A stretch of DNA of 64,000 nucleotides from an uncultured bacterium (lineage in GTDB: Bacteria; Patescibacteriota; Minisyncoccia; Phycocordibacterales; UBA9973), in contig CALCZP010000002.1 of NCBI GenBank assembly GCA_937903035.1, positions 20,739 to 84,738 of the forward strand, written 5' to 3'. The stretch's first letter is position 1. Every line of letters begins with the position of its first letter. Both the position numbers and the translations under genes were made by a program. The notes below the pieces were generated by a model, which was not told where the DNA came from, did no database searches, and saw nothing but the letters and a program-made list of their open reading frames with translations. Of this stretch, positions 1 to 12,729 are shown one piece after another.

Positions 1-90
1 GCTCTATCTGCTGGAATACTTTTGATATTACAAGATAAAACAGTAGCCCAAAATCCTGCCACTAGTATATTTATTGCAAGTGAAAAATAA
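1..90 (+). CDS. C-terminal fragment of an upstream gene (hydrophobic tail ...ALSAGILLILQDKTVAQNPATSIFIASEK, stop at 88-90); product unknown
   Basis: Open frame 1 from the window edge to TAA at 88-90; no start codon in the window. Not in the ORF track because it is too short and partial. Confidence 0.25.
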   Translation, partial: ALSAGILLILQDKTVAQNPATSIFIASEK

Positions 91-188
91 ACAAGAATCA
101 TACGATACGAAAGTATATCATTTTACATTAAGACCATTTGGTCTTAATTCGAGAATGTTCGGAATTCAATGAGAGAAGTAGAATACTA

Positions 189-216
189 TTGACAATTTTT
201 GATTATTATTTATAAT
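189..216 (+). promoter_or_regulatory. Sigma70-like promoter (TTGACA, 16 nt, TATAAT) upstream of ORF 240-743, preceded by the palindrome AAGACCATTTGGTCTT (130-145) and the motif GAATGTTCGGAATTC (153-167)
   Basis: Read directly: TTGACA at 189-194 and TATAAT at 211-216, about 25 nt before the ATG at 240. Near-consensus hexamers are common in AT-rich DNA, so confidence is moderate. Confidence 0.4.
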
Positions 217-239
217 AATCAAAACCTTAAAAACTATAT

Positions 240-743
240 ATGAAACCAGCAACACTAGTTTTCTCAGACAGCGGCAAGTCCGTTCATATCAAATTTGCAA
301 ACGACAAAGAGTCTTTCGAATTTGAAAGCAAGGAAGAAGCACTGTTCGCCATATGCGATTGCTTTAATAAGGAAAAGATAACTGCAACTGAAAAGGATGC
401 TTTTGTGAAAGAAATTATTCTCTCAGAAACTCTTCCGGATCATAGGATAAAAATTTCCTTAGTACCCCTTATTCTTCTGGCAGCCTTTTTGGGTGCCATG
501 GATGCTGAAGAAAAAATCATTGATCCGCAGGTAAAGATGTGTGAGTGTGGTATGAAAATGCCACATGCATATATTTACAATAGAGACGATGAAAAAATTG
601 GTCCACCATTTCAATTTAAAATGGACGGCATGGTGTATGTAGAAAGCTTGTTGAAAGAAGAACGTATTACTGAAGGTGATAGTGCAAGGTTAAATACTCT
701 TATCACTTTTTTACAGCTTCCTGAAAGCTCGATGCTCAATTAA
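240..743 (+). CDS. hypothetical protein (167 aa)
   Basis: Long ORF with a promoter-like sequence upstream and a hairpin terminator downstream (779-822). No recognisable domain. Confidence 0.5.
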   Translation: MKPATLVFSDSGKSVHIKFANDKESFEFESKEEALFAICDCFNKEKITATEKDAFVKEIILSETLPDHRIKISLVPLILLAAFLGAMDAEEKIIDPQVKMCECGMKMPHAYIYNRDDEKIGPPFQFKMDGMVYVESLLKEERITEGDSARLNTLITFLQLPESSMLN

Positions 744-778
744 ATCAAAATTCGTTTTAAAAACGCTATTTTGTACAA

Positions 779-822
779 AATAGGCTATTCCTTATTCAAG
801 GAATAGCCTATTACTCTTTTTG
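779..822 (+). terminator. Rho-independent terminator hairpin (AATAGGCTATTCC...GGAATAGCCTATT plus T-run) after ORF 240-743
   Basis: Perfect 13-bp inverted repeat followed by CTCTTTTT. Confidence 0.5.
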
Positions 823-830
823 TTGAAAAA

Positions 831-858
831 TAAAAAAGCTGGATTTCTCCAGCTTTTG
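831..858 (-). terminator. Terminator hairpin (AGCTGGA-TTTC-TCCAGCT) with a T-run on the minus strand, downstream of minus-strand gene 864-1385
   Basis: 7-bp stem. The minus strand reads GCTGGAGAAATCCAGCTTTTTTA. Confidence 0.5.
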
Positions 859-863
859 TTTAA

Positions 864-1385
864 TCATTTTTTGTTTTCAGCTTCATTAATCTTTTCTCTT
901 AACTCAGCCGCTTTTGGATAATCTTCATTTCGTACAGCTTCTTCCAGTTGCTTCCTGAGTATTTCAAGGTTTAATTCAGGGTCGATTTTTTTCCGCTTCT
1001 TCTCATCAATCGGAGCTAAAATCAGACCTTCTTTGAAGACAATGTATTCGTGCTCGCATTCTGCCACCATATTGATATAGGTGGTGACATTTTCAATAAC
1101 GAAATCATTATCTTCGTTTTCTCCTCTTGAGAAATCAAGCTCAAAATCATGCTCGGTCATTTCTGATCCGATACGCTTAACGTACACACATTCAGGAAAG
1201 ACTTCCATGAATTCTTCAACAGTATCTCCTTCGGGGAGGTGAATTATTCCGGTGTCATGATGAAGATAGAGACAATCCTTAATGACGAGGATGTGTTGGT
1301 TTTCGATAAACCCTTCATCACCAATATCCATTTGCGAAAGACGGCACTGGCGATGGCGAACATTTACTTTTCCAATAATGGGCAT
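864..1385 (-). CDS. hypothetical protein with a C-terminal UVR (UvrB/UvrC-type) motif
   Basis: The C-terminus LRKQLEEAVRNEDYPKAAELREKINEAE matches the UVR-domain consensus from UvrB/UvrC. The N-terminal domain is not recognised. Confidence 0.55.
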   Translation of the reverse strand: MPIIGKVNVRHRQCRLSQMDIGDEGFIENQHILVIKDCLYLHHDTGIIHLPEGDTVEEFMEVFPECVYVKRIGSEMTEHDFELDFSRGENEDNDFVIENVTTYINMVAECEHEYIVFKEGLILAPIDEKKRKKIDPELNLEILRKQLEEAVRNEDYPKAAELREKINEAENKK

Positions 1386-1496
1386 GGTTATGTGGTTTTA
1401 AGGTTATAGAATTTTGTTTAAATCCACATTACCATCTTACTTGACTTTGTCAAAGAAACGGGTAGAGTACGAGGAAACTCATTTAAAACATAAATT

Positions 1497-2717
1497 ATGT
1501 ACAAACTCGAACATGAATTACTCACGAAGTATGCAAAAGTAATGGTTCATTATGCTATTGGAAATGGTAACGGACTTAACAAGGGCGAAACAGTCTTTCT
1601 TATTGGTCAGGAGTGCACAAAGGATCTCTATCTCGAAATTTGCAAAGAAATTTGGCGAAGTGGAGGAAATGTAATCCATCGATACCTTCCTGATGAAGTA
1701 GGACGTTATGGTATAAACCGATCATTGCTTGAGATAGGTACCGATGAACAACTTACATTCTTTCCAACTCCGTATTGGCAAGGTGTTACTGATGTTATGG
1801 ATCATATTCTATTTATCATTGCTGATCCAGATATGCATGCATTGGATGGAATACTTGCTGAAAAAATTTGCAAAATGGAGGAATCAAAGGCTCCCTTTAT
1901 GGAAATGCGTGAAAAGAAAGAATCCGTAGGCAAACTCTCTTGGACACTCTGTTTGTATGGAACCGAGTCAATGGCCAAAGAAGCAGGTATAAATCTGCAA
2001 GAGTATTGGGAACAGATCATCAATGCTTGTTATCTCCAAGACGAAGATCCGGTTGCAACTTGGCGTAATACTAAGGAAGAGATTGTTAAAATCAAGTCTT
2101 GGCTTTCTGAACTCAAGATTGAAAGGGTGCACGTTGAAGCAGATGGAATTGATCTTTGGATCAAGGTTGGAGCAGATCGTAAATGGCTTGGAGCATCGGG
2201 GCACAATATACCAAGCTTCGAAGTCTTTACATCACCGGACTGGAGAGGAACATCTGGAAAGATTTTTTTCAATCAGCCGTTATACTATCAGTGTAAAAGG
2301 ATTTCTGGCATTCAGCTTGAGTTCAAAAATGGTGTTATTACTCATGCTTCAGCAGCAGAAAATGAAGATACGCTGTTACAGATGATTGCGATTGAAAACG
2401 CCAACAAAATAGGAGAGTTTTCTTTGACTGACAGACGTCATTCCAGGATTACCAAACCGATGGCAACAACTCTGTTTGATGAAAATATGGGTGGAAAATA
2501 TGGCAATACGCATATTGCACTTGGTATGTCCTATAAAGAAGCTTTTGTCGGTGATATTGGGGGCACTACAGATGAAGGATGGGAAGCGAGAGGTTTCAAT
2601 CTTTGTCATAAGGTTCACACCGACATCATCAGTACTGCAAACAGAAAAGTAACAGCTACTTTGGCAAACGGTGAGTCGTTAGTAATTTATGAAAACGGAC
2701 AATTTACAGTTGTCTAA
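1497..2717 (+). CDS. M29-family aminopeptidase (AmpS/PepS-like)
   Basis: 406 aa. The N-terminal pattern LLxKYAKVMVxYAIGxxxGLNKGETVFL and the overall length resemble thermophilic-aminopeptidase (M29) proteins. Family assigned from memory of the sequence pattern. Confidence 0.6.
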   Translation: MYKLEHELLTKYAKVMVHYAIGNGNGLNKGETVFLIGQECTKDLYLEICKEIWRSGGNVIHRYLPDEVGRYGINRSLLEIGTDEQLTFFPTPYWQGVTDVMDHILFIIADPDMHALDGILAEKICKMEESKAPFMEMREKKESVGKLSWTLCLYGTESMAKEAGINLQEYWEQIINACYLQDEDPVATWRNTKEEIVKIKSWLSELKIERVHVEADGIDLWIKVGADRKWLGASGHNIPSFEVFTSPDWRGTSGKIFFNQPLYYQCKRISGIQLEFKNGVITHASAAENEDTLLQMIAIENANKIGEFSLTDRRHSRITKPMATTLFDENMGGKYGNTHIALGMSYKEAFVGDIGGTTDEGWEARGFNLCHKVHTDIISTANRKVTATLANGESLVIYENGQFTVV

Positions 2718-2726
2718 TTTATTCAA

Positions 2727-2747
2727 GGAGCTTCGGCTCCTTTTTCT
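2727..2747 (+). terminator. Terminator hairpin AGGAGC-TTCG-GCTCCT plus TTTTTC after the aminopeptidase gene
   Basis: 6-bp GC-rich stem, UUCG tetraloop and a T-run, 10 nt after the stop at 2717. Confidence 0.55.
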
Positions 2748-2828
2748 ATTTATTCCGAACTCTTGAGGATGTTTGGAATTATTTGACAAAATAAAAAATA
2801 TTGTGTAATTTTGGTAAAAATAATCATT

Positions 2829-3091
2829 ATGAAACAAACTCTTGAAATGAAAACCTTATTTAAGAAAGGTGATAAAGTTAAAATCACCAGACTTGAAAAA
2901 ATGGTTACACTGACGAAGGTGAGGTATTCTCAGCTTCCTCGAAAGAAGTTGGTATTAAGATAACTCAGTCTCCAACTCAAGGTGCGGTAGGTATGGAGGT
3001 AAGGTTTGGGATGAGAGATGGGGTATGGAAATACCTGAATGGAAATACGTATAGCAAGAGAGATTCTGGGTATTCCATTGCAAAAATTTAA
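2829..3091 (+). pseudogene. Small gene interrupted by a frameshift in an A6 run (2896-2901). If the run is restored to A7 it gives an ~86-aa protein beginning MKQTLEMKTLFKKGDKVKITRLEKNGYTDEGEVFSASSKEVGIKITQSPTQGAVGMEV..., which may be a DUF2945 / hypervirulence-associated TUDOR-like small protein
   Basis: Frame A runs ATG 2829 to TAA at 2946. The -1 frame continues from 2903 to TAA at 3089-3091 with a coherent sequence. The junction is exactly at GAAAAAATGG. A promoter-like TTGACA sits at 2785 and a hairpin terminator at 3102-3131. Confidence 0.35.
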
Positions 3092-3101
3092 TAAAAACTA
3101 G

Positions 3102-3131
3102 AGATGCTTTAGTAATAACGCATCTTTTTTA
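3102..3131 (+). terminator. Terminator hairpin AGATGC...GCATCT plus TTTTTT
   Basis: 6-bp stem with a 12-nt loop, followed by T6. Confidence 0.4.
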
Positions 3132-3163
3132 TTTTGTCTAAATTAGATTCAAACATCGTTCAA

Positions 3164-3195
3164 GCATTCCGAACATTAGAGGATGTTCGGAATGC
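3164..3195. promoter_or_regulatory. Perfect 13-bp inverted repeat GCATTCCGAACAT-N6-ATGTTCGGAATGC, directly upstream of a promoter-like TTGACT(3203)...TAGACT(3224) for ORF 3247
   Basis: Read directly. The same half-site ATGTTCGGAAT recurs at 153-167, 2755-2782 (imperfect) and 3545-3569. Confidence 0.45.
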
Positions 3196-3246
3196 TCTGA
3201 TATTGACTCCTATTTAAAACCGACTAGACTGGAGAAAACATTTGCC

Positions 3247-3624
3247 ATGAGTAAGCTATACAAATGCAAAAAGAAAGTATTGGATTTTATACAAGCTGCT
3301 GGTGATACTGGGGCTACAGAAAGTCAGCTAGTATGTGTTATTAATGAATTTAATAGGGAAGAATGTATGTTTGAATACGATATCAATCCTCTAACTCCAG
3401 CTTCAATTATTGAGCAGCTTGTATTCAAGTTCGAAGACCTTCTTTTTGAAAAGAGATTTATTCCAAAGAAAGAACTTTTCTTCTTTTGGATTTACAAATC
3501 TTCGCCACCTCCAGGAAAGGTGGTTTTTCTTTTGTCTCTACTAGCTCGGAATGTTGAAGGATGTTCGAATGAGTTTAGGGTAATAAAAAACCCATCACGA
3601 ATGATGGGTTGTTGTAAGAATTGA
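3247..3624 (+). CDS. hypothetical protein (125 aa). The N-terminal region could be a winged-helix DNA-binding fold, so it may be the regulator for the adjacent palindromes (speculative)
   Basis: ORF with a promoter-like sequence and an operator-like inverted repeat upstream. Its 3' end runs through a hairpin at 3589-3615, so the true stop may be earlier. Confidence 0.4.
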   Translation: MSKLYKCKKKVLDFIQAAGDTGATESQLVCVINEFNREECMFEYDINPLTPASIIEQLVFKFEDLLFEKRFIPKKELFFFWIYKSSPPPGKVVFLLSLLARNVEGCSNEFRVIKNPSRMMGCCKN

Positions 3625-3631
3625 ATGAATC

Positions 3632-4033
3632 TTACTCAACAGTGATTACTCCTTTACGAGTTTTTGTTGAATAATAAGCCTTAATTGTAACAATTTCTTT
3701 TCTATAAAATCCAAGAAGGTAGTCTTCCTCAGCGAAACATTTGAAGTCCTCAAAACTGAGTTTTTTAGCATACACTCCTGGTTCTATTTTCTCCGGCTTT
3801 TTAACAAAAAATGATTCCGAAACACATTCTTTGTTAGTGGAAAAAGTTAGGTTCCAGGATTGACCACCGCCATCTTCCGCCTCAATAGAGTTGATGATTG
3901 CAGCAATATACTTTTCATTTTCATTTTTTTCAAAACAAAAAGGAACTAACCTTTTTTCGGCTAAAAGGCGTAAACCGTCAAACAATTCCTCTCTTGAGGG
4001 ACCGTTTGTAATCTGAATTGTTTTTTGTAACAT
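3632..4033 (-). CDS. hypothetical protein (133 aa)
   Basis: Clean ORF convergent with 3247-3624. No recognisable motif. Confidence 0.45.
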   Translation of the reverse strand: MLQKTIQITNGPSREELFDGLRLLAEKRLVPFCFEKNENEKYIAAIINSIEAEDGGGQSWNLTFSTNKECVSESFFVKKPEKIEPGVYAKKLSFEDFKCFAEEDYLLGFYRKEIVTIKAYYSTKTRKGVITVE

Positions 4034-4203
4034 CGTACGATGAATTTAAAAGAACTCTTTATGCGTTTTACAGAGGATAAAGAATACTCTGGAGCTATGA
4101 AGCAATCTTTCCGTACAGAAAGAACTATCTGCATCATAGCACAAAATAATTGACAAGTCAAGTATGATATGCTATCATACAGTTAAATCAAACTTAAAAA
4201 ATT

Positions 4204-4581
4204 ATGAACTATAAGCTTTTCTACACATGCCTTATAACATTCTTTGGCATGATGTTTTGGTTACTGTTTCAGCAGGGCTCTATGGACTTTATTGCTGTCA
4301 GAATAATCATCGCCTTTATCTCAGCAATCCTTCTTTTCTTTTCTGTAACATGGAATGAAAAAGGTGGTTGGAAAAAGGCAGTGGTAGTACTTCTGGTGAT
4401 AATAGGTTTCGGTTCAATCGCAAACTTTGCTTTTGGCTGGGGTATCGCACATTATCCAGGAATTACACTACTGACAATGCCAGGGATACTTGTTCTTGGA
4501 CTTTTATACATAAAGTTTGTGGAACCAAAAATTCTGAACAAAAAGCCAAAACAGAAAATGCGTCCTGAGATTTATAATTAA
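4204..4581 (+). CDS. small integral membrane protein (3-4 TM helices)
   Basis: Hydrophobic throughout. The upstream TTGACA (4150-4155) and extended -10 TGCTATCAT overlap the palindrome GTATGATA-TGC-TATCATAC (4162-4180). Confidence 0.5.
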   Translation: MNYKLFYTCLITFFGMMFWLLFQQGSMDFIAVRIIIAFISAILLFFSVTWNEKGGWKKAVVVLLVIIGFGSIANFAFGWGIAHYPGITLLTMPGILVLGLLYIKFVEPKILNKKPKQKMRPEIYN

Positions 4582-4769
4582 ACTAATTTGTCCTTTTACC
4601 GAAATGCCTCACTTAATAGTGGGGCTTTTTTCTTTCCTCCAGACCTTCACAACATACACAACGTTCACGTGCTCGCTTGGAGGAACGCATTTCGAACTTT
4701 TGACTGGGCTGAATTATACAGCGATACTAAGTTCCACTTAGAAAATACTAACAGGTTGCTTGCACTAGC

Positions 4770-6617
4770 TTAAAGAGTTACCTGTCTGACAATCTCTCTA
4801 ATTTCAATACTTTCTGGGTTTGCATCGTCTGCAAGATATGTCGTGAGTTGGTTATTGCAGAAATCGATTGTTTCAGTAAGACCCTTGGTGATCCCTAGAT
4901 AATGTTCTAGATCACCATTTTTAAGAATATACATTTTGTTTGCGTACTCTCCGTCAATTCTAGCCTCCCAATCTGTATTTCTCGCTTTGAATGCAGTTAC
5001 TTCAGCAGGTGCTTTTACGCTCTGTCCTTTGTCTGCAGGATAGAAAAGATCGATAGCAAAATCCAGATCATTGATGCCATAGACTGATAAACCAAAGCTC
5101 GTAAAAAGAGCACTCCATTCTTGATGATTACCTTTGCCGTTAGTTTCAAGCACAGCAATCTCTTGATCAAGTTCTGGGTACTTTTCTTGAATGATAGATT
5201 TGAAAAAGTATCGATCTGTATCGCCCTCAACTAAGAGAACTTTTTTGGCAAAGAATGCGTAAGTTGATCTGGTATTGTCGAGTATCTTGATGAGTATTCT
5301 TTGCTCAGTTGTCAGTGTAGGTGCTTTGATGGCGGTGTATCCATCAGATGTTAGGGAGAAACGCTTTACTTGATTGATAGTCGATGAATTGATCAGTGCT
5401 TCTGAATGAGTTACCAAAATATATTGACAACTTTGTTCTTTGTTCAGTTCTCGAATAACCTGCAGATATTCATTTTGAAACTGGTAATGAAGATGTATCT
5501 CTGGCTCATCAATAATAACTACGCCACCTTTTAGATCACCACGCCCATAAGACTCGAAGACGAGGTGAATAATTGCTTTTTGTCCCGCACTCAAACTGTT
5601 TATGTCATTGAGCTTTTTGTTTCGGCGCAAATCAAGAAACTCAAATGCATATTGCCAAGTTCTGAGGTCTATCAACCTGATCTTGCATTCAAGATTGATG
5701 AGTTTCAGTTTCTTATTTATCGAAATAATAAAGGGTAGTTCATTAGCACTCTTTTCGCATTCTGCATCGTCCATTTTTCCTGAAATGAGACTAAAATGTT
5801 TTTCCGCTACTCGAAGCCTGACAAGACCAAAGATGCTTGGCTCTCCTTGGTCATTTGCATTTAAGCTTTTTGAGAAATCACGAGTTTTGATTTGTTGCAT
5901 TTGCTGTGATGGAAGCTGATCTCGTAGTGAGATAGATGTATCAAAAGCATGATAGTTTCGATAACTTGAAATTAAAGTGAAAGACTCATACAACGGGGCA
6001 ATCGGTGCTGTTGGGTGTTCTATGTTGTATATCTCGATAAGCTCTTTATAGAAATTGTAGTCAGAAAGATATTCAAACCCAAAATCGTGAGCACCTTGTT
6101 GAAATGCGACTGAAAAAGACTGGTTAGTTTTGTTCAAGGTAATATCAAGTGTGTAGTTTTCTTGATGTGCCGTCAGTCCTGTAAGACCTCGTACTGTATA
6201 TGAAAGAAGTGGGTTAAGAGAAGCCTGATTGTCTCTGATGTGTTGTAGGTTCTGCAGATCAATAGCATCGAGCTTTATTTCAAGTCTAATTTTCTGATCT
6301 TTGTCCTCAGTGTTCCAGTTTGGTTCCAAGCGAAAACCGCTGTATGTCTGGGCATTCACAGGTGTAAGGATTTGCTTTCTCTCGTCCGCAGTTACAGTAC
6401 TTTTCCGTGAATACAACTCTTGATTTACATTGAACTGCTTATATAGCACTCTCTTGAAAAGAAAGTTTACAACCTCCAATGCAGTAGATTTTCCTGCACC
6501 ATTCTCTCCAATAATGATATTTAGACCATCCTCAAAGACGATCTGCTCAGCGTTAGCTACATCGTCATGGTGCTTAAAACTTAGGATGTTTGATACTCGT
6601 AATGACTTGATCTTCAT
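4770..6617 (-). CDS. OLD-family (overcoming lysogenization defect) ATP-dependent endonuclease, class-1-like: N-terminal ABC/AAA ATPase plus C-terminal TOPRIM
   Basis: Walker A GENGAGKST near the N-terminus. Walker B/D-loop LVIIDEPEIHLH. C-terminal TOPRIM signature VLLVEGDTDRYFF, with DxD (GINDLDF) about 45 residues later. No adjacent UvrD-like helicase, so it is not a Gabija pair. Confidence 0.75.
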   Translation of the reverse strand: MKIKSLRVSNILSFKHHDDVANAEQIVFEDGLNIIIGENGAGKSTALEVVNFLFKRVLYKQFNVNQELYSRKSTVTADERKQILTPVNAQTYSGFRLEPNWNTEDKDQKIRLEIKLDAIDLQNLQHIRDNQASLNPLLSYTVRGLTGLTAHQENYTLDITLNKTNQSFSVAFQQGAHDFGFEYLSDYNFYKELIEIYNIEHPTAPIAPLYESFTLISSYRNYHAFDTSISLRDQLPSQQMQQIKTRDFSKSLNANDQGEPSIFGLVRLRVAEKHFSLISGKMDDAECEKSANELPFIISINKKLKLINLECKIRLIDLRTWQYAFEFLDLRRNKKLNDINSLSAGQKAIIHLVFESYGRGDLKGGVVIIDEPEIHLHYQFQNEYLQVIRELNKEQSCQYILVTHSEALINSSTINQVKRFSLTSDGYTAIKAPTLTTEQRILIKILDNTRSTYAFFAKKVLLVEGDTDRYFFKSIIQEKYPELDQEIAVLETNGKGNHQEWSALFTSFGLSVYGINDLDFAIDLFYPADKGQSVKAPAEVTAFKARNTDWEARIDGEYANKMYILKNGDLEHYLGITKGLTETIDFCNNQLTTYLADDANPESIEIREIVRQVTL

Positions 6618-6661
6618 GGTGTAATACTAGCATTTTTTGCCCTGTTTAAGTATTTCAAAAA

Positions 6662-7600
6662 ATGTTAAAATACACTTTACTTATGAGCAATGTAACAAAG
6701 CCCAAAAAAAGGACTTCAAAGAGCCTTAAAAACAAGAAGAAGTTTACTTTTATAGACTTATTTGCAGGGATCGGTGGCTTTCATTACGCTTTCCATAACG
6801 TAGGTGCAGAATGCGTCTTTTCTTCAGAATGGGACGAACACGCAAGAAAAACCTATCAGACCAACTTTGAAAAAATAAGTCCTGATCTATTTAAGTCTGG
6901 TAATTTTGTTGGAGATATTACAAAAGTAGATAAGAAAGCTATTCCTGATTTTGATATTTTGACGGGAGGATTTCCGTGCCAGCCATTTAGTCAGGCAGGG
7001 TTCAAAAAAGGTTTTAGTGATACGAGAGGCACACTTTTTTATGATATTGCGGACATAATCAAAGTTAAAAAACCTAAAGCTTTTTTCCTAGAAAATGTTA
7101 GAGGGCTTCTCGCTCACGATAACGGTAAAACTTTTGAAACGATCAAGAGTGTTTTGACTGAAGAGTTAGGATACTCACTATTTTTTAATATCGTTAAAGC
7201 TTCTGATCATGGCTTGCCTCAAAATCGCCCTCGACTATTTATGATCGGTTTTAGAAATAAGAAAATACCTTTTTCTTTCCCTGAAAAAAGACCCCTGGAG
7301 TTCACCATGTCAGATGTATTTGGTGAGCCTGTAAATCGTGATATTGGCTTTACTTTGCGTGTTGGTGGCAAAGGCTCTGTAATTACTGATAGACGAAATT
7401 GGGATAGTTATATGGTAAATGGAAAGCCTAAAAGATTATCCTCAAAGGAGGGTAAGAAAATGCAGGGGTTTCCAGATGACTTTGTTTTCCCAGTCTCTGA
7501 AAGTCAGGCAATGAAGCAATTAGGAAATAGCGTAGCCATATACGCCATACAAGATTACGCACAAAAGATAATTGAAGCACTTGAAAATCATTATGAATAA
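6662..7600 (+). CDS. DNA (cytosine-5)-methyltransferase, the modification subunit of a type II R-M system
   Basis: m5C-MTase motifs: I FIDLFAGIGGF, IV GGFPCQPFS, VI FLENVRGL, VIII QNRPRLFMIGF, X GNSVAI. The true start may be the internal Met at 6683. Confidence 0.9.
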   Translation: MLKYTLLMSNVTKPKKRTSKSLKNKKKFTFIDLFAGIGGFHYAFHNVGAECVFSSEWDEHARKTYQTNFEKISPDLFKSGNFVGDITKVDKKAIPDFDILTGGFPCQPFSQAGFKKGFSDTRGTLFYDIADIIKVKKPKAFFLENVRGLLAHDNGKTFETIKSVLTEELGYSLFFNIVKASDHGLPQNRPRLFMIGFRNKKIPFSFPEKRPLEFTMSDVFGEPVNRDIGFTLRVGGKGSVITDRRNWDSYMVNGKPKRLSSKEGKKMQGFPDDFVFPVSESQAMKQLGNSVAIYAIQDYAQKIIEALENHYE

Positions 7601-8675
7601 TCAAAAACAAACAACAGGAAATACAGGAGAATGGAGTGAGTTATACGCTCTCGCTTTTCTCTTGGCTAATGGTGGTGCATACGGTGCTGACAAAGATCAA
7701 AACAGAAAAGAGGATTTGTTCTACAAGGTTCTGAAGATAATCTTTGCTGAAAAAGTGGGTAAAGAAAAGATGACTTACGAAATCAATGATGGAGTTATCG
7801 ATGTCTTTGCAGGTTTGAATAAAATCGCCTCAATAAAAACACAAAAGATACAAAGCATTCTTAAAAAGATGTTCGAGACTTTATCTGCAAAAAATGTAGG
7901 GCGAGCCTTTCCACTAGAAGCAGGTTCAGAGATGATGCAACTCTTACAGAAACAAGTCATTAAGGCTTCAAGCTCAGATAAGAAAGACCTTGATCTAGTG
8001 GTTCTTGATCTGAAAACAAACCAGCCAAGTCCAGAGATTGGCTTCAGTATAAAATCCCAACTCGGAAGCCCCTCAACTCTAGTAAATGCTTCAAGTGCAA
8101 CAAACTTTACTTACGAGATACTTGATAAGGATATGAAAGTCCCTACGCAATTACCAAAATTGCACGAGAAAAATGTTAAAGATAACATCAATCTTTTGAT
8201 GGCTTCTGGATATAACATTGTTTTTCGTAAAGTAGACAGTGAGAAGTTTGAACACAACCTTTCTTTGATCGATAGCAATCTGGCGACATATATCGCAAAA
8301 ATACTTTTGTCATATTACGCACGAGAAGCAAGTAATTTATCGGGTCTAGTTTCTCATAACTTTCCTGCATCTGATCAACAGAGCAAACAGCCAACTCATA
8401 AGATAAAAGAGTTCCTGAGTATTATGGCTTTGGGAATGATGCCTAATACTGATTGGAATGGAATACTAACAAGTCTTGGAGGTTTTCTGTTGGTTAAAAA
8501 AGATGGTGATGTATTGTGCTATTACCTCTACAACCTCGAAGATTTCCAAGAATATCTGCTAAATAATACAAAGCTCGATACACCAAGCACCACTCGATAC
8601 GGAATTGGAAAAATCATAGAGGAAGACAATCGCTTTTATATAAAGCTCAATCTACAGGTTCGATTTACTAAATAA
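7594..8675 (+). CDS. Type II restriction endonuclease, HpaII-family-like
   Basis: The ATG at 7594 overlaps the MTase stop (ATGAATAA), which is typical R-M coupling. The N-terminus GNTGEWSELYALAFLLANGGAYGADKD matches my recollection of the conserved HpaII-family N-terminal block (GEWSELY...). ORF-track start 7572 trimmed to 7594. Confidence 0.6.
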
Positions 8676-8794
8676 ATTACACAAAAGATCGCTCTACACA
8701 TCTGTCTTTTTGAGGTGTTTTTCGATATAATGCAATTACAGCTGAATAAAGCCGACCTAACCCCTACAGCCTTAAAACTTTAGGATATGGTCGC

Positions 8795-8951
8795 AAACCG
8801 CAAGCAACGTAAAAACCCGATCATTAGGGCGTTGCTTGCGTTACATGGGGAAACCTGTGTATGAGTCTTCGGACTCACCTAGTGGTCGGATTTTTGCGTC
8901 TTACCCTCCTAGTTTTAAAAATAAAGCAAAACAAATCGCAAGCAACGATTA
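8795..8951 (+). promoter_or_regulatory. Structured leader in front of ORF 8951. CGCAAGCAACG occurs at 8799-8809 and again at 8937-8947 (the second copy abuts the ATG). A single complementary CGTTGCTTGCG lies at 8830-8840. A GAGTC-UUCG-GACTC hairpin lies at 8864-8878
   Basis: Read directly. Two identical segments compete for one complement, and the second copy covers the ribosome-binding region. Confidence 0.35.
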
Positions 8952-9379
8952 TGAATACAAACAATATCTCTTCCTGGAGTACAGGAAGAAAGTTAGTCGT
9001 TTTTTTATTAGTTCCCATCTTCATTGCAGTAGTCGTAGGTATGGCAAGCAGTCCAACTCCTGCTCCTGTCCAAAAGACGGCAGAAGAGATCGCATACCAG
9101 AAGAAGCATGACTTTGCTTCATTGGCGAAGATGAATGTCGAGATGATGCTCAAAGCTCCGTCTACAGCAAAGTTCAATACTTCTCCGACCATCAAGGAAG
9201 AGAATGGTATCTACTCGATCAACTCATGGGTTGATAGCGAGAACAGCTATGGAGCGATGATCAGAAGCCAGTGGTCAGCCAAGGCTCACTACATCGGAGG
9301 AGACTCTGAAGATGAGATCGGAACAGGCGCAAACTGGATCATTGACGAGTTCATTTTTGACGGGAAAAAGGTCAAATAG
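8951..9379 (+). CDS. membrane-anchored / secreted hypothetical protein (142 aa from the internal Met)
   Basis: N-terminal TM segment LVVFLLVPIFIAVVVGM. ORF-track start 8861 trimmed to the Met that follows the structured leader. Confidence 0.45.
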   Translation: MNTNNISSWSTGRKLVVFLLVPIFIAVVVGMASSPTPAPVQKTAEEIAYQKKHDFASLAKMNVEMMLKAPSTAKFNTSPTIKEENGIYSINSWVDSENSYGAMIRSQWSAKAHYIGGDSEDEIGTGANWIIDEFIFDGKKVK

Positions 9380-9390
9380 CAAATGATGCA

Positions 9391-9594
9391 TTAACAGTGG
9401 AAAAAACAGTGGTGAGGGGGTCAAAAACACGCAAAAAAACACGCAAAACGGTATCTGATCTTTTTGGACAATAACAGTGTGAAAAACAGTGTGGGGAGGA
9501 TCAAAAACAGTGAAAAAAACAGTGAAAAGTACCTCGAAAAGCATCACAAGAAAAAGTACATTAACAGCGATAAAAACAGCGAGAGAGGGTCAAA
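9391..9594. repeat. Iteron-like composite direct-repeat array of three ~37-bp units spaced ~80-88 bp apart. Each unit is a doublet of AACAGTG/AACAGCG separated by A5-6, followed by a G-rich TGAGGGGGTCAAAAAC-type tail. Interleaved doublets ACGCAAAA x2 and AGTGAAAA x2
   Basis: Units at 9391-9428, 9471-9508 and 9559-9594, read directly. They lie immediately upstream of the winged-helix gene 9630-10262. Confidence 0.6.
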
Positions 9595-9629
9595 TTGCGG
9601 TGTACTTTGTCGACAAAAAATACTAAAGT

Positions 9630-10262
9630 ATGTCTATGACAAAGTTGGCATCTAATGCAAACCAAAAAGTAAAGCTAATCCTAGAAAAAATCGTTGAAGA
9701 ATACGATTTAGGAAATGGTAGTGGCGACATCACACTAGGAAGTCATCATTTCCTAAAAGATACAGGTATAGATACTAATCAATTCCTAAGGATACTGAGA
9801 AATCTTGAACAGAACCATATTCTTGAAAGCTTTAAAGTGCACGCAAACGCTAGAACTGATGATGGCGATCTGGTCTGTTTCTTGAAGCCATTAAACCACT
9901 TTAAATCAAGAGCTGAAGATTATATTGAAAGACTTGAAGTTCCAGTAGAGTCTGCTCCTGGTTTCTTCTTGTATCTTGATAAAAGCAATTTTTGGCATAC
10001 TGATAAAAAGAAATACTCTTACCCGATGAATAACGCACCAGGACGTTTAGCGATCTTAAAATACCTAGCAGAAAACAAGGGAGTTCAACCTACTAAAGAA
10101 ATAGCTTCTTTTTTGGGTAGAACAACTAAAAGGATTATGAATGATGTGGGAAAAATAAGAGCAGAAATCAAAGAACATCTAAAGCTCCCAGATGTTATAG
10201 AAAACAGCAAGCCAGATGGTTACTACATCAACCCCAAGTATACAGTTATAGTTACTGACTAA
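9630..10262 (+). CDS. hypothetical DNA-binding protein (putative winged-helix). Candidate replication initiator or regulator acting on the upstream repeats
   Basis: 210-aa ORF. The C-terminal segment RLAILKYLAENKGVQPTKEIASFLGRTTKRIMNDVGKI is HTH/winged-helix-like. Its position next to the iterons is only suggestive. Confidence 0.45.
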   Translation: MSMTKLASNANQKVKLILEKIVEEYDLGNGSGDITLGSHHFLKDTGIDTNQFLRILRNLEQNHILESFKVHANARTDDGDLVCFLKPLNHFKSRAEDYIERLEVPVESAPGFFLYLDKSNFWHTDKKKYSYPMNNAPGRLAILKYLAENKGVQPTKEIASFLGRTTKRIMNDVGKIRAEIKEHLKLPDVIENSKPDGYYINPKYTVIVTD

Positions 10263-10382
10263 GTACTCTCGCTCTCCTGTTAATATCTAGGATCAATGTC
10301 TTATCTTAAAAAGGTTTTTTAAGATGTGAAGAGTACTAGAAGCGTATATACAGAGTACATATCTGACACATAAAATCATTAT

Positions 10383-10565
10383 GTGATCAGCGATGCAACA
10401 ATTAAGAAGTTCCAACAAGTAGTCGAGAGTGAGTACCATGTCATTCTTGATGAAAAGGAAGCGAGAGAAGTTCTCACTAACTGGGTTGGTTATTTTGACT
10501 TGCTTGCAAAGATCGATCACAGAATACAATCAGAAAGTCAGAGGTCGTTAGTGAGTCCTCTTTAA
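10383..10565 (+). CDS. small hypothetical protein (60 aa)
   Basis: ORF in a 530-nt gap. Sequence looks protein-like but has no RBS or motif support. Confidence 0.25.
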   Translation: MISDATIKKFQQVVESEYHVILDEKEAREVLTNWVGYFDLLAKIDHRIQSESQRSLVSPL

Positions 10566-10574
10566 AAAACCGAC

Positions 10575-10660
10575 TACTAACTTGTATTTGCATGTAGATA
10601 ATAGCGCCTGACACACTGAGTGAGACTTCTCAGCAGGCGACCTCATCTGCATACAAGTCA
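10575..10660. other. Nested imperfect inverted repeats (CTTGTATTTGCATGTAGAT ... ATCTGCATACAAG enclosing CGCCTG...CAGGCG). Candidate oriT, att or sRNA-like structured site
   Basis: Read directly. Lies upstream of the RHH-like small gene and the recombinase. Confidence 0.25.
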
Positions 10661-10792
10661 AGCAACTGTATCGAGATGTTTGCTATGAGGGGGTTGAAAC
10701 ATTTTGATAGATTTTTTGAAAAATTACTAATTTAACTATCCCAATCTGTAAAAAACCAATACAGATGAGGGAGGAAAAAGTCTAAACAAAAT

Positions 10793-11023
10793 ATGTCAAC
10801 AAAGAGACAAAAGCTATATAGCAAAGAAGATATTAAGCTTGCACAAGAAGAAAGTAAAAGAGTTGGAAAATACTTTACTCGTAAAACAGCCAAAAGGAAA
10901 ACAATACAGGTTAGGATCGGTGAAAAATGGCATCAAAAGATCAAAGAAGTCGCTGGTGAAGAAAAGATAATGATTTCATTTTTTCTTGATCGAGTTTGTG
11001 AGCACTTCTTTAAGCATTACTAA
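10793..11023 (+). CDS. small basic protein (76 aa), possibly a ribbon-helix-helix DNA-binding protein (MobC-, Arc- or RDF-like)
   Basis: Good SD (AGGGAGG) 8-14 nt upstream. Lys/Arg-rich. The KTIQVRIGEKWHQKIKEVA segment is compatible with an RHH beta-strand plus helix. It sits directly 5' of the recombinase. Confidence 0.45.
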   Translation: MSTKRQKLYSKEDIKLAQEESKRVGKYFTRKTAKRKTIQVRIGEKWHQKIKEVAGEEKIMISFFLDRVCEHFFKHY

Positions 11024-11038
11024 TTATTTACTAATCAC

Positions 11039-12610
11039 ATGAATAAACCAACAAAAACAAAAGCCGTTATATATGCCAGAGTTTCTTCTAAAGAGCAGGA
11101 AGAAACTGGCTACTCATTAAACTCACAAGAGGAGCTTCTAAATAATTACTCAACAAGTCGAAACGACTTCAATGTAGTAAAAGTATTTAGGATTTCTGAG
11201 TCTGCGAGTGGGAAAATCCAGCGCACAACCTTTACTGAAATGATTAAGTTTATGGACAAGAATAAAATAAATATCCTTGTCTGTGAGAAAGTCGATCGAC
11301 TCACGAGAAACTTCAAAGATGCATTGATTATCGATGAATGGCTAGATCAGGATGAAAACCGACAGGTGCACTTGGTCAAGGACTCTCTAGTGATGCATAA
11401 GCATTCAAAATCGCAAGAAAAGCTTAACTGGGGTATTAGAATACTCTTCGCAAAAAATTACACAGACAATCTTTCTGAAGAAGTTAAAAAGGGTCAGAAG
11501 CAAAAAATAAAAGAGGGTTGGCTACCAACCACTCCTCCACTTGGTTATAAAACTGTAGGAGAAAAAGGACATAAAATCCATGTGATCGATGAGACTGTTG
11601 CACCCTATATAAAAGAAATGTTTGCCTTGTATGCCACAGGTAATTATTCAACAGTTGCGTTGGGAGAAAAAATGTACAAACAAGGCTTCCGAAGTCGATC
11701 AGGTGTTCAGGTAGTAAAAAGCCAAATACATAAAATACTCTCTGAGCCTTTTTATTACGGAAAACTTGTATGGAATGGAAATCTTTTTGAGGGCAAACAC
11801 GACCCACTTATCTCAAAAGATTTGTTTGATCAGGTTCAGGCAAAAATGTCTCGTGGTGCAATACCGTATCACAATAAAGGGCTTACTGAGTTAAGAGGTA
11901 AAATCTTCTGCGGTTCTTGTAATAAAACCGTTACTTGGGAATTACAAAAAGGCACTATGTATGGTGGTTGTAAGCAGTGTAAGGCACAGCTTGGCAAAGA
12001 TAAGAAGTATATCCACCAGGAAGACCTAGAAAGCGATCTACTGGCTCATATTGCCTCTGTAGCTCCTCTTAGTGAGAAAGTTATAGATGTGCTTAATCAG
12101 GCTTTAAAAGAGAGCCACAGTGAGGAAATAGGGCTACATGAGACTCAAACCAGGAACATCAACAATCAACTAGAAAGAATAAGGCAGAGAATGAAAAACA
12201 TGTACCTGGACAAGATTGATGAGAGAATAAGCGGAGACTTCTACGATGAGCAGGTCGCACAGTTTGCAGAAGAAAAAGAAGCATTACTCCACTCTCTGAA
12301 AAAACTCGAAGCAGATAATACTGAATACTACCGAGTTGGATTTATGATCCATGAGATTGCACTGAGAGCGAGAGAGATTTATCTCAATGAAAACGCATCG
12401 ATTGAAGAGCGCAGAATGCTTCTTGCTTATGCATTCTCGAACATCACTGTTTTAGCAGGAAATATAAAGGCAGAATACACAAAACCTTTTGCTTTTCTTG
12501 CAGAATGGATGCCAAGAGTAAATGAAGTTCTCGAACTGGAAAAAACCCTTGGTACAAAAGGAAAAGAGAGCACTTTCGTGCCCTCTCATCCTATCGTGCT
12601 CCCCCGGTAG
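11039..12610 (+). CDS. large serine recombinase (resolvase/invertase N-terminal catalytic domain, recombinase domain, zinc ribbon and coiled coil)
   Basis: N-terminal VIYARVSSKEQ with catalytic Ser, and DRLTRN. Zinc ribbon CGSCNK...CKQCK. 523 aa. The stop codon overlaps the tRNA-Asn 3' end. Confidence 0.9.
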   Translation: MNKPTKTKAVIYARVSSKEQEETGYSLNSQEELLNNYSTSRNDFNVVKVFRISESASGKIQRTTFTEMIKFMDKNKINILVCEKVDRLTRNFKDALIIDEWLDQDENRQVHLVKDSLVMHKHSKSQEKLNWGIRILFAKNYTDNLSEEVKKGQKQKIKEGWLPTTPPLGYKTVGEKGHKIHVIDETVAPYIKEMFALYATGNYSTVALGEKMYKQGFRSRSGVQVVKSQIHKILSEPFYYGKLVWNGNLFEGKHDPLISKDLFDQVQAKMSRGAIPYHNKGLTELRGKIFCGSCNKTVTWELQKGTMYGGCKQCKAQLGKDKKYIHQEDLESDLLAHIASVAPLSEKVIDVLNQALKESHSEEIGLHETQTRNINNQLERIRQRMKNMYLDKIDERISGDFYDEQVAQFAEEKEALLHSLKKLEADNTEYYRVGFMIHEIALRAREIYLNENASIEERRMLLAYAFSNITVLAGNIKAEYTKPFAFLAEWMPRVNEVLELEKTLGTKGKESTFVPSHPIVLPR

Positions 12611-12670
12611 GATTCGAACCTACGACCAATCGCTTAACAGGCGACTGCTCTACCGCTGAGCTACAGGGGA
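12599..12670 (-). tRNA. tRNA-Asn (anticodon GUU)
   Basis: Minus-strand sequence TCCCCTGTAGCTCAGCGGTAGAGCAGTCGCCTGTTAAGCGATTGGTCGTAGGTTCGAATCCTACCGGGGAG folds as a canonical cloverleaf (7-bp acceptor, GCTC/GAGC D-stem, anticodon loop CTGTTAA, T-loop TTCGAAT). It begins UCCCCUG like enterobacterial tRNA-Asn. No CCA is encoded. Confidence 0.85.
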
Positions 12671-12729
12671 ATATATGCTCATAAATGAGCGAGGAAACTA
12701 TACCATTTCAGGCTGGCATTTTCAATCCT

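Follow-up and report, generated by a model that had tools for sequence, protein, structure and literature searches.

OLD family nucleases have been divided into classes on the basis of genetic context (PMC10568477, PMC12392090): Class 1 enzymes are encoded by single genes, Class 2 genes are accompanied by a UvrD-like helicase (GajB), Class 3 enzymes occur in retrons, and Class 4 is PARIS, which is split or sometimes fused. Class 1 is the least understood, with phage-related phenotypes only for P2 Old, Vc OLD and YbjD. Its precedents (PMC7049728, PMC10568477, PMC12392090) are P2 Old, which is triggered by RecBCD inhibition, TsOLD, with exonuclease and nickase activities, Vc OLD, which acts as a nickase and blocks the replication of ICP1, and YbjD. 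Here we describe a 64,000-nt stretch of contig CALCZP010000002.1 from an uncultured bacterium of the candidate phyla radiation (CPR), hereafter the window, in which a gene for an OLD family nuclease lies next to, and divergent from, an HpaII-family type II restriction-modification (R-M) operon. The operon consists of genes for a C5-cytosine DNA methyltransferase (M) and a restriction endonuclease (R). A first-pass annotation of the sequence had interpreted the OLD gene and the operon as a coupled, two-layer defence module. We found that they are co-resident cargo on one mobile element, and that they form two defence layers only in a loose sense. The locus is an ordinary small defence island and no new coupled system. 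Both of its parts, the Class 1 OLD gene and the type II R-M operon, are new members of kinds already known; it refines rather than overturns current views and corrects the idea that OLD and R-M are one unit.

The window OLD resembles the described Class 1 enzymes (TsOLD, 6P74; P2 Old; Vc OLD; YbjD) in its metal-A and metal-B ligands, in a lysine or arginine (K/R) at a spacing of 7 residues, in being encoded by a single gene and in having no conserved partner, and TsOLD was its best match by both sequence and fold. It differs from TsOLD in length (615 versus 528 amino acids, aa), with 16% identity in the structural alignment, and from P2 Old, to which it is ~26% identical over the C-terminal quarter only. 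In contrast to published descriptions of Class 1 (PMC7049728, PMC10568477), it has an intact ABC signature (LSAGQK), which is invariant in its clade, and another defence system as neighbor. The clade is also unusually conserved (60–75% identity across phyla). The R-M operon is similar to M.HpaII/R.HpaII (CCGG) in that R covers the full RE_HpaII profile and is immediately preceded, within the operon, by a 5-methylcytosine (m5C) methyltransferase with canonical motifs; it differs in its short M (305–312 aa), in its location on small CPR integrative elements, and in that CCGG is expected from the family only. Alternative cargo at a fixed backbone position between conserved flanks is also a feature of the old/tin hotspot of P2-like prophages, where other systems have been noted in the place of P2 old (PMC10568477), but here the cargo is carried not by a prophage but by a serine-recombinase island of ~8 kb located at a tRNA gene. 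Gabija and PARIS likewise combine an ABC ATPase and a TOPRIM nuclease, and the PADLOC GajA and AriA models matched the window OLD, which however has no GajB-like helicase, separate AriB or DUF4435.

Exchange of cargo beside a conserved R-M operon

The window sequence 6657–12675 matched two other loci (L082 and L083) at 86–91% nucleotide identity and a third (L080) at 75–86% (features are listed in Table 1). The backbone common to all three comprised M, R, a LOOT RNA, open reading frames (ORFs) of 172, 210 and 76 aa, a 523-aa serine recombinase and tRNA-Asn. On the other side of the OLD gene, the 100 bp beyond its stop codon (4671–4770) were kept in L080 and L082 at 78–82% identity (78% in L082). 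Between these conserved flanks, both loci, the two of the three that extend this far, carried an unrelated three-gene cassette exactly where OLD sits and on the same strand as OLD, and the breakpoint of the swap on the R-M side was located at 6654–6657, 5–8 bp ahead of the M start. Its 350-aa protein matched phrog_3364, and none of the three cassette proteins had a PADLOC, Pfam-function or PDB match; the cassette is a candidate for an uncharacterised defence system. Only two alternative cargoes have been seen in the slot so far.

Homologues of the window OLD were in turn found in other surroundings. About 70 OLD-encoding loci were gathered; a metagenome scan with a TOPRIM-only alignment gave 56, and a scan of genome contigs with the full-length alignment, keyed on Walker-A patterns, gave only ~6 true loci. 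Homologues 85–95% identical to the window protein occurred in at least three contexts other than that of the window. For example, in L018, whose host is related and shows synteny over tRNA-Asn, fmt, def, hisS and gyrA, an 89% identical OLD followed tRNA-Asn and a 165-aa ORF and abutted a truncated serine recombinase, with no R-M neighbor. In L090, a 95% identical OLD directly abutted the host DUF305 gene, which is ~6 kb further off in the window genome; no R-M was present on the visible downstream side, and the upstream side ended with the contig. In L091 and L092, a type III mod-res pair lay 29 bp upstream of an 87% identical OLD; this pair was part of another serine-recombinase element, on which AbiE was found as well. 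Nucleotide homology to the window in L018, L025, L026 and L090 was limited to ~4770–6626, i.e., the ORF and ~9 bp. Among the ~70 OLD loci, an HpaII-family endonuclease beside OLD was found on the window's own contig only.

The M-R pair is an intact HpaII-family type II operon. M contained the full set of C5 motifs (FAGIGG, PCQ, ENV, QNRPR and GNSV were visible) and scored 1.9e-84 with PF00145 DNA_methylase, 5.6e-83 with TIGR00675 and 3e-103 with PADLOC MTase_II, its nearest solved structure being M.HhaI (3e-66). R, whose ORF spans 7572–8675 with the first in-frame ATG, the likely start, at 7593, matched PF09561 RE_HpaII at 1.7e-85 over positions 1–359 of 359 and PADLOC REase_II at 4.1e-75. The first-pass annotation had thus named the pair properly as an m5C methyltransferase and an HpaII-family endonuclease, and had miscounted their overlap as 7 nt; it is 8 nt (ATGAATAA, 7593–7600), with the M stop TAA at 7598–7600 and the R start ATG at 7593–7595, and the same 8-nt overlap was present in the gene calls of four related loci. 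The nearest relatives of R were from Falkowbacteria, Yonathbacteria, Paceibacterota and Kaiserbacteria, which together with a short IF-2 makes the host look like a CPR/Patescibacteria bacterium. The 90%-identity cluster that includes R also had members elsewhere, on other contigs. Relatives of R (83–96% identical) were always preceded by an M gene, M and R occurring together in 7 of 7 related loci. Besides, pairs with an endonuclease 83–86% identical to R recurred in CPR genomes beside differing neighbors: an ABC-3C-type set (SMEK_N/CTD12, MC6/MC8 and DUF2326) in L086 (2961–5935; endonuclease 84%), a SIR2 protein and a DUF87 ATPase in L088 (8120–11405; also 84%), and genes without known function in L085 and L087. 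Since the backbone was kept with another cassette, OLD homologues were found elsewhere and the neighbors of M-R varied, we regard the R-M operon as the stable unit and OLD as an independent single-gene cargo.

As a separate observation, the HpaII-family R-M pair seems to be an anchor of small defence islands in CPR genomes.

The region between OLD and M pointed in the same direction. A 44-bp shared divergent promoter region had been proposed here, and the gap indeed measures 44 bp if M starts at 6662. On an identical public contig, M was called from ATG 6683 (305 aa), and distant M homologues aligned only from residue 28, so that the gap may be 65 bp by this start choice. Homology with L018 ended at 6626, while homology with L080 and L082 began at 6654–6657; accordingly, 6618–6626 accompany OLD and 6654–6661 accompany M. 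On these alignments, the putative promoter region straddles a recombination junction between cassette and backbone. No sigma-70 consensus site was found in the gap, although this consensus may not suit the organism.

Some observations weigh against full independence of the two parts. The OLD-M junction was also present on a short contig (L024; 87% nucleotide identity) that ends inside M, which indicates, as far as this contig can be read, that the arrangement persisted over some divergence. In a survey of the two nearest ORFs on each side of 51 distinct OLD loci (149 ORFs in total), some DNA methyltransferase lay within two ORFs in 8 loci (~16%; three N6, three N6/N4 and two C5), and the type III mod-res of L091 made a ninth case. 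Methyltransferases near OLD genes are the clustering expected of defence islands, with heterogeneous R-M types; a looser functional affinity between the OLD clade and R-M may nonetheless exist.

These points argue for the alternative that OLD and R-M form one functionally coupled module, in which OLD would be a back-up when a phage disables restriction, in the manner of PARIS, or the two would be co-regulated from the divergent region. The genes are adjacent, divergent and 44–65 bp apart, the junction recurs on L024, a methyltransferase is near OLD in 8 of 51 loci with the L091 mod-res directly upstream, and the PADLOC AriA and AriAB models matched OLD weakly. However, the R-M backbone is retained where another cassette fills the slot, the closest OLD homologues have no R-M neighbor (L018) or none on the side that is visible (L090), the R-M types beside OLD homologues are mixed (C5, N6, N4, type I and type III), the gap between OLD and M is chimeric, and no partner family recurs. 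The co-occurrence comparison across loci, in which OLD was swapped out of a conserved R-M backbone, did not support the coupling of the first-pass annotation, and we consider a coupled module unlikely.

A second alternative is that OLD serves the mobile element itself, through post-segregational killing or addiction, competition at tRNA-Asn, or DNA processing in transfer. Genes of mobile elements nearly always surrounded or adjoined the OLD gene (~8 loci had serine recombinases, others integrases), and P2 Old kills recBC hosts (PMC7049728). But anti-phage phenotypes have been described for P2 Old, Vc OLD and YbjD, the characterised enzymes of Class 1 (PMC10568477, PMC12392090), the slot holds other cassettes, and the R-M pair is found elsewhere beside ABC-3C-type domains and beside SIR2 and a DUF87 ATPase, all of which fits a slot for defence cargo. 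A service to the element therefore appears quite improbable.

With OLD and R-M as co-resident cargo, the locus may work as follows. A backbone made up of the R-M operon, LOOT RNA, recombinase and three small ORFs accompanied by iterons carries a variable slot between the left end and R-M. The cargo in the slot is transcribed away from the R-M operon, and here the slot is filled by a self-contained, single-gene OLD of Class 1 type; OLD and R-M most likely act independently. M comes first and R would be translationally coupled to it through the 8-nt overlap, an order that would favor host protection before cleavage, and R would cut unmethylated incoming DNA, at CCGG if it follows its family. OLD is probably a homodimer formed via the domain inserted in its ATPase, as in TsOLD. 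Its ATP binding and hydrolysis would license a two-metal TOPRIM nuclease, by which DNA would be nicked or degraded, and this activity would block phage replication or kill the infected cell.

The locus offers a clean natural cassette replacement on a very small integrative element of CPR bacteria, a group in which mobile elements and immunity have been little explored. We regard this replacement, the uncharacterised DUF4325 cassette and the location of the LOOT RNA as moderately interesting by-products of the analysis. A broader interpretation is possible but rather doubtful at present: in a family of serine-recombinase islands of CPR genomes that bear a LOOT RNA, the slot would be a true hotspot at which defence cassettes are exchanged, the DUF4325 cassette an undescribed defence system, and the OLD clade, of ~616 aa, a functionally distinct Class 1 lineage tending to travel with varied R-M systems as a second layer.

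The OLD protein and its class

The assignment of the 615-aa protein to the OLD family is secure by domains, catalytic residues and fold, in agreement with the first-pass annotation, which had recognised a fusion of an ABC ATPase and a TOPRIM domain from three motifs, all of which we located in the protein (GENGAGKST at residues 37–45, VLLVEGDTD at 460–468 and NDLD at 516–519). Hidden Markov model searches gave AAA_15 (3.5e-20), AAA_21 (3.8e-16) and OLD-like_TOPRIM (PF20469; 1.5e-14) in Pfam, and the three ORFs (OLD, M and R) with their Pfam scores were far above chance expectation. In PADLOC, the top model was Old (4.9e-27) with GajA and ATPase-Toprim_I-B close behind, and the scores of Old, GajA, ATPase-Toprim_I-B and AriAB were all within ~20 bits.

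The ATPase motifs were Walker A K43, signature LSAGQK (342–347), Walker B D370-E371, H377 and H404, and all seven TOPRIM residues (E464, D468, D517, D519, D569, E571 and K578) were present. In an alignment of 19 sequences of the clade, K43, LSAGQK, D370-E371, H377, H404, E464, D468, D517, D519, E571 and K578 were invariant, whereas D569 was replaced in 2 of 19. When catalytic residues of TsOLD and P2 Old (PMC7049728) were used for mapping, E464/D468, D517/D519, D569/E571 and K578 aligned with TsOLD E377/D381, D431/D433, S478/E480 and R487, and with P2 Old E398/E402, D453/D455, D541/E543 and K550. K578 thus lies 7 residues past the metal-B glutamate E571, with the same spacing in TsOLD (E480-R487) and P2 Old (E543-K550). 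In the Class 2 enzyme BpOLD the corresponding pair is E508-K562, with the lysine in a distal helical domain (PMC7049728). By analogy with its family, the protein is predicted to have metal-dependent nuclease and ATPase activity.

A sequence profile search of PDB found TsOLD (6p74, 6.2e-16) as the sole match spanning the TOPRIM domain, AriA and PtuA matching the ATPase only, and comparison with phage P2 Old by hhalign gave a probability of 97.4%. An AlphaFold model (predicted local distance difference test score 77.8; predicted template modelling score, pTM, 0.61) had TsOLD as its top Foldseek match (6p74, 1.4e-15), followed by GajA (8u7i, 8x5i) and the OLD protein of retron Eco8. Global template modelling (TM) scores were low (0.25–0.31), which we attribute to differing domain orientations in a predicted structure of pTM 0.61. 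The Foldseek E-values of TsOLD, GajA and retron-Eco8 OLD were within one order of magnitude. Since a fold search of this kind cannot separate Class 1 from Class 2 or 3, the class was assigned from genomic context and from where the K/R residue lies.

Genomic context was informative in this respect. Among the 149 neighbors of OLD homologues in the 51 loci, no Pfam family was present in more than four, the commonest being serine recombinase. An all-against-all BLAST of these neighbors revealed no recurring family without known function, and the largest cluster had four members, all serine recombinases. Neither a helicase nor a reverse transcriptase recurred. In the window itself, the gene downstream of OLD was a convergent 125-aa ORF without family match and the gene upstream was M; no UvrD-like (GajB-type) helicase gene was present, and family and Rfam scans found no reverse transcriptase or retron noncoding RNA around OLD. 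The first-pass annotation was therefore right to set the protein apart from Gabija, as no UvrD-like gene was in the window or recurred beside homologues, and from a split PARIS system, as there is one fused protein with no DUF4435 match in Pfam at E≤0.01. The NCBIfam model of the retron Eco8 effector (retron_eff_Eco8) scored 71 bits against a cut-off of 250. Because no helicase, reverse transcriptase or other partner recurs in the 51 loci, the identity of the protein as a stand-alone Class 1 OLD is supported. The least credible of the alternatives is that the protein is a fused Class 4 (PARIS AriA-AriB) tRNA-cleaving enzyme or a Gabija or retron OLD without its partner, for which reports of fused PARIS genes (PMC12392090) and the closeness of the PADLOC scores and Foldseek E-values could be cited, but against which stand a TOPRIM domain that matches PF20469 and not DUF4435 (E≤0.01), TsOLD as the only PDB sequence matched across it, the K/R position shared with TsOLD and P2 Old and not with BpOLD, the low Eco8 score and the neighbor survey of the 51 loci.

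Two descriptive traits of Class 1 do not apply to this stand-alone Class 1-type enzyme. A degenerate ABC signature has been described for Class 1 homologues, as a trait rather than a defining criterion (PMC7049728), whereas LSAGQK is canonical-like and invariant in the clade. Similarly, according to a review, genes of Class 1 are not located near other defence genes (PMC10568477), and the window OLD adjoins a type II R-M operon.

More than 700 homologues were found in a search of 5.8 billion proteins. The best 120 were nearly all 615–620 aa long and 61–100% identical, and they came from lineages as far apart as Staskawiczbacteria, Nomurabacteria, Legionella, Ferrovibrio and Geothrix. The clade is nevertheless small, with 173 cluster representatives at E≤1e-30 among 1.84 billion. 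No full-length relative was present in the phage, plasmid and IMG/VR collections searched, and scans of viral contigs with the OLD TOPRIM segment, the endonuclease and the recombinase gave nothing relevant. Being small, conserved across distant phyla and equipped with a canonical ABC signature, the clade could provide a comparison enzyme for Class 1.

A probable integrative element at tRNA-Asn

The region ~4668–12620 is probably an integrative element of ~7.95 kb at the 3' end of tRNA-Asn, mobilised by the large serine recombinase and composed of the R-M backbone with its variable slot. The recombinase also matched the phrog_95 integrase family (4e-78), and its ORF runs 13 nt into the 3' end of tRNA-Asn with the stop TAG inside the tRNA; the same was observed in L082 and L083. 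G+C content was 0.36–0.39 up to ~12,000 and 0.45–0.47 beyond, the step falling at tRNA-Asn, and a Logan contig of the same genome ended within this tRNA. At the other end, the start of the conserved left flank, CGTGCTCGCTTGGAGGAACGCATTTCGAAC (4668–4697), resembles a sequence of the same orientation where the tRNA has its 3' end, CGTGCTCCCCCGGTAGGATTCGAAC (12595–12619). Only these two sites in 64 kb fitted CGTGCTC-N(8–20)-TTCGAAC (0.02 expected), a pattern that was picked after both were seen. The att-like pair is therefore only suggestive of the element ends.

Table 1. Coordinates of the features in the window, and of the alternative cassette in the loci that carry it.
Feature	Position	Strand	Size, evidence and remarks
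Putative left attachment site (att) remnant, tentative	4668–4697	plus	CGTGCTC...TTCGAAC, like 3' part of tRNA-Asn; opens 100-bp flank 4671–4770
OLD family nuclease, single-gene, Class 1-type	4770–6617	minus	615 aa; domains, residues, fold
Divergent intergenic region	6618–6661	none	44 bp, or 65 bp with the M start at 6683; chimeric
C5-cytosine DNA methyltransferase (M), first gene of R-M operon	6662–7600	plus	312 aa; PF00145, TIGR00675, PADLOC
HpaII-family type II restriction endonuclease (R)	7593–8675	plus	360 aa; PF09561, full profile
LOOT RNA (Rfam RF03000)	8754–8877	plus	74 bits versus gathering score 46.4
Backbone ORF, 172 aa	8861–9379	plus	142 aa on public contig; phrog_13160, 2.4e-13
Iteron-like repeats	9393–9581	plus	Four, AACAGTG-N5-AACAGTG; repeat search; upstream of 210-aa ORF
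Backbone ORF, 210 aa	9630–10262	plus	42–53% identical in L080, L082 and L083; most divergent backbone gene
Backbone ORF, 76 aa	10793–11023	plus	Directly upstream of recombinase; 74–99% identical in L080, L082 and L083
Large serine recombinase (integrase)	11039–12610	plus	523 aa; Resolvase 4.2e-21, Recombinase 3.4e-16, Zn_ribbon_recom
tRNA-Asn (GTT), integration target, right end	12598–12670	minus	tRNA and Rfam scans, G+C step
Alternative cassette	L082 751–2723; L080 2830–4802	minus	350 aa, 113-aa DUF4325 (STAS-like), 195 aa

Several points speak less well for such an element. Its left boundary is tentative, as the att-like repeat is imperfect and was recognised post hoc from the alignment of the conserved flank. 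No exact or near-exact second copy of the tRNA-Asn 3' end was present in the window or in L017, a generic repeat search of the window gave no convincing att pair, and Rfam found no tRNA-like or other family over 4560–4800. No empty insertion site was found; the related host of L018 had different content at its syntenic tRNA-Asn. Low G+C content (0.32–0.40) also extends to the left of 4668, to ~0.9 kb past the window start, and the island may be composite. As L090 is without this ~6 kb of low-G+C DNA and joins OLD directly to the DUF305 gene, the DNA left of the element is, from this comparison, probably a separate second variable segment at the same locus. As for the R-M operon, the sequence gives no support to a CCGG specificity, which would be expected from its family only, because the host part of the window showed no depletion of CCGG (observed/expected 0.89) and the depletion in the element, described below, was common to GGCC and CGCG. 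The host value is compatible with a recent acquisition of R-M.

Not a single CCGG, GGCC or CGCG was found in 4671–12597, where ~10 of each were expected from composition and 2.7–7.3 from a Markov model; in 1–4670, CCGG occurred 5 times versus 5–6 expected. Word counts of this kind suggest that these elements avoid several restriction sites, and that the sites avoided differ between lineages.

With regard to other words, ACGT was present 3 times in the element versus 10.7 expected and L082 had the same pattern, while L080 was instead without CATG (0 versus 16.8 expected). L082, with tRNA-Asn-like repeats at 50–88 and 644–743, thus has a further partial copy ~600 bp to the left, flanking a glyoxalase gene, which suggests tandem or nested insertions at this site. 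Window positions 1–4668 and the ~0.9 kb beyond the window start (L017 7896–13600) encoded an M29 aminopeptidase, a UVR-motif protein and several ORFs without match.

LOOT RNA and small backbone genes

A LOOT RNA was found at the equivalent position in L080 (6981–7112), L082 (4921–5044) and L083 (1741–1864), so that this orphan RNA is now placed on serine-recombinase elements, of which it is a conserved part. In the window it lies just upstream of the 172-aa ORF and overlaps its start. In L086, a LOOT RNA (10119–10249) was located directly before an ORF and ~2 kb from the R-M pair of that contig. The copies in the window and in the four other loci scored 74–80 bits. A literature search found no function for it. 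LOOT may be a leader or a small RNA of CPR mobile elements that is not linked to the R-M operon.

None of the small backbone ORFs had a match in PADLOC or PDB. The 172-aa ORF was 94% identical in L082 and L083. The 76-aa ORF had no significant family match and could, as one possibility, encode a recombination directionality factor. For the 210-aa ORF, family and phrog searches likewise gave no match. The AACAGTG repeats upstream of it could, from their arrangement, be an operator or origin-like site, and its product is possibly a DNA-binding or replication protein acting on these iterons.

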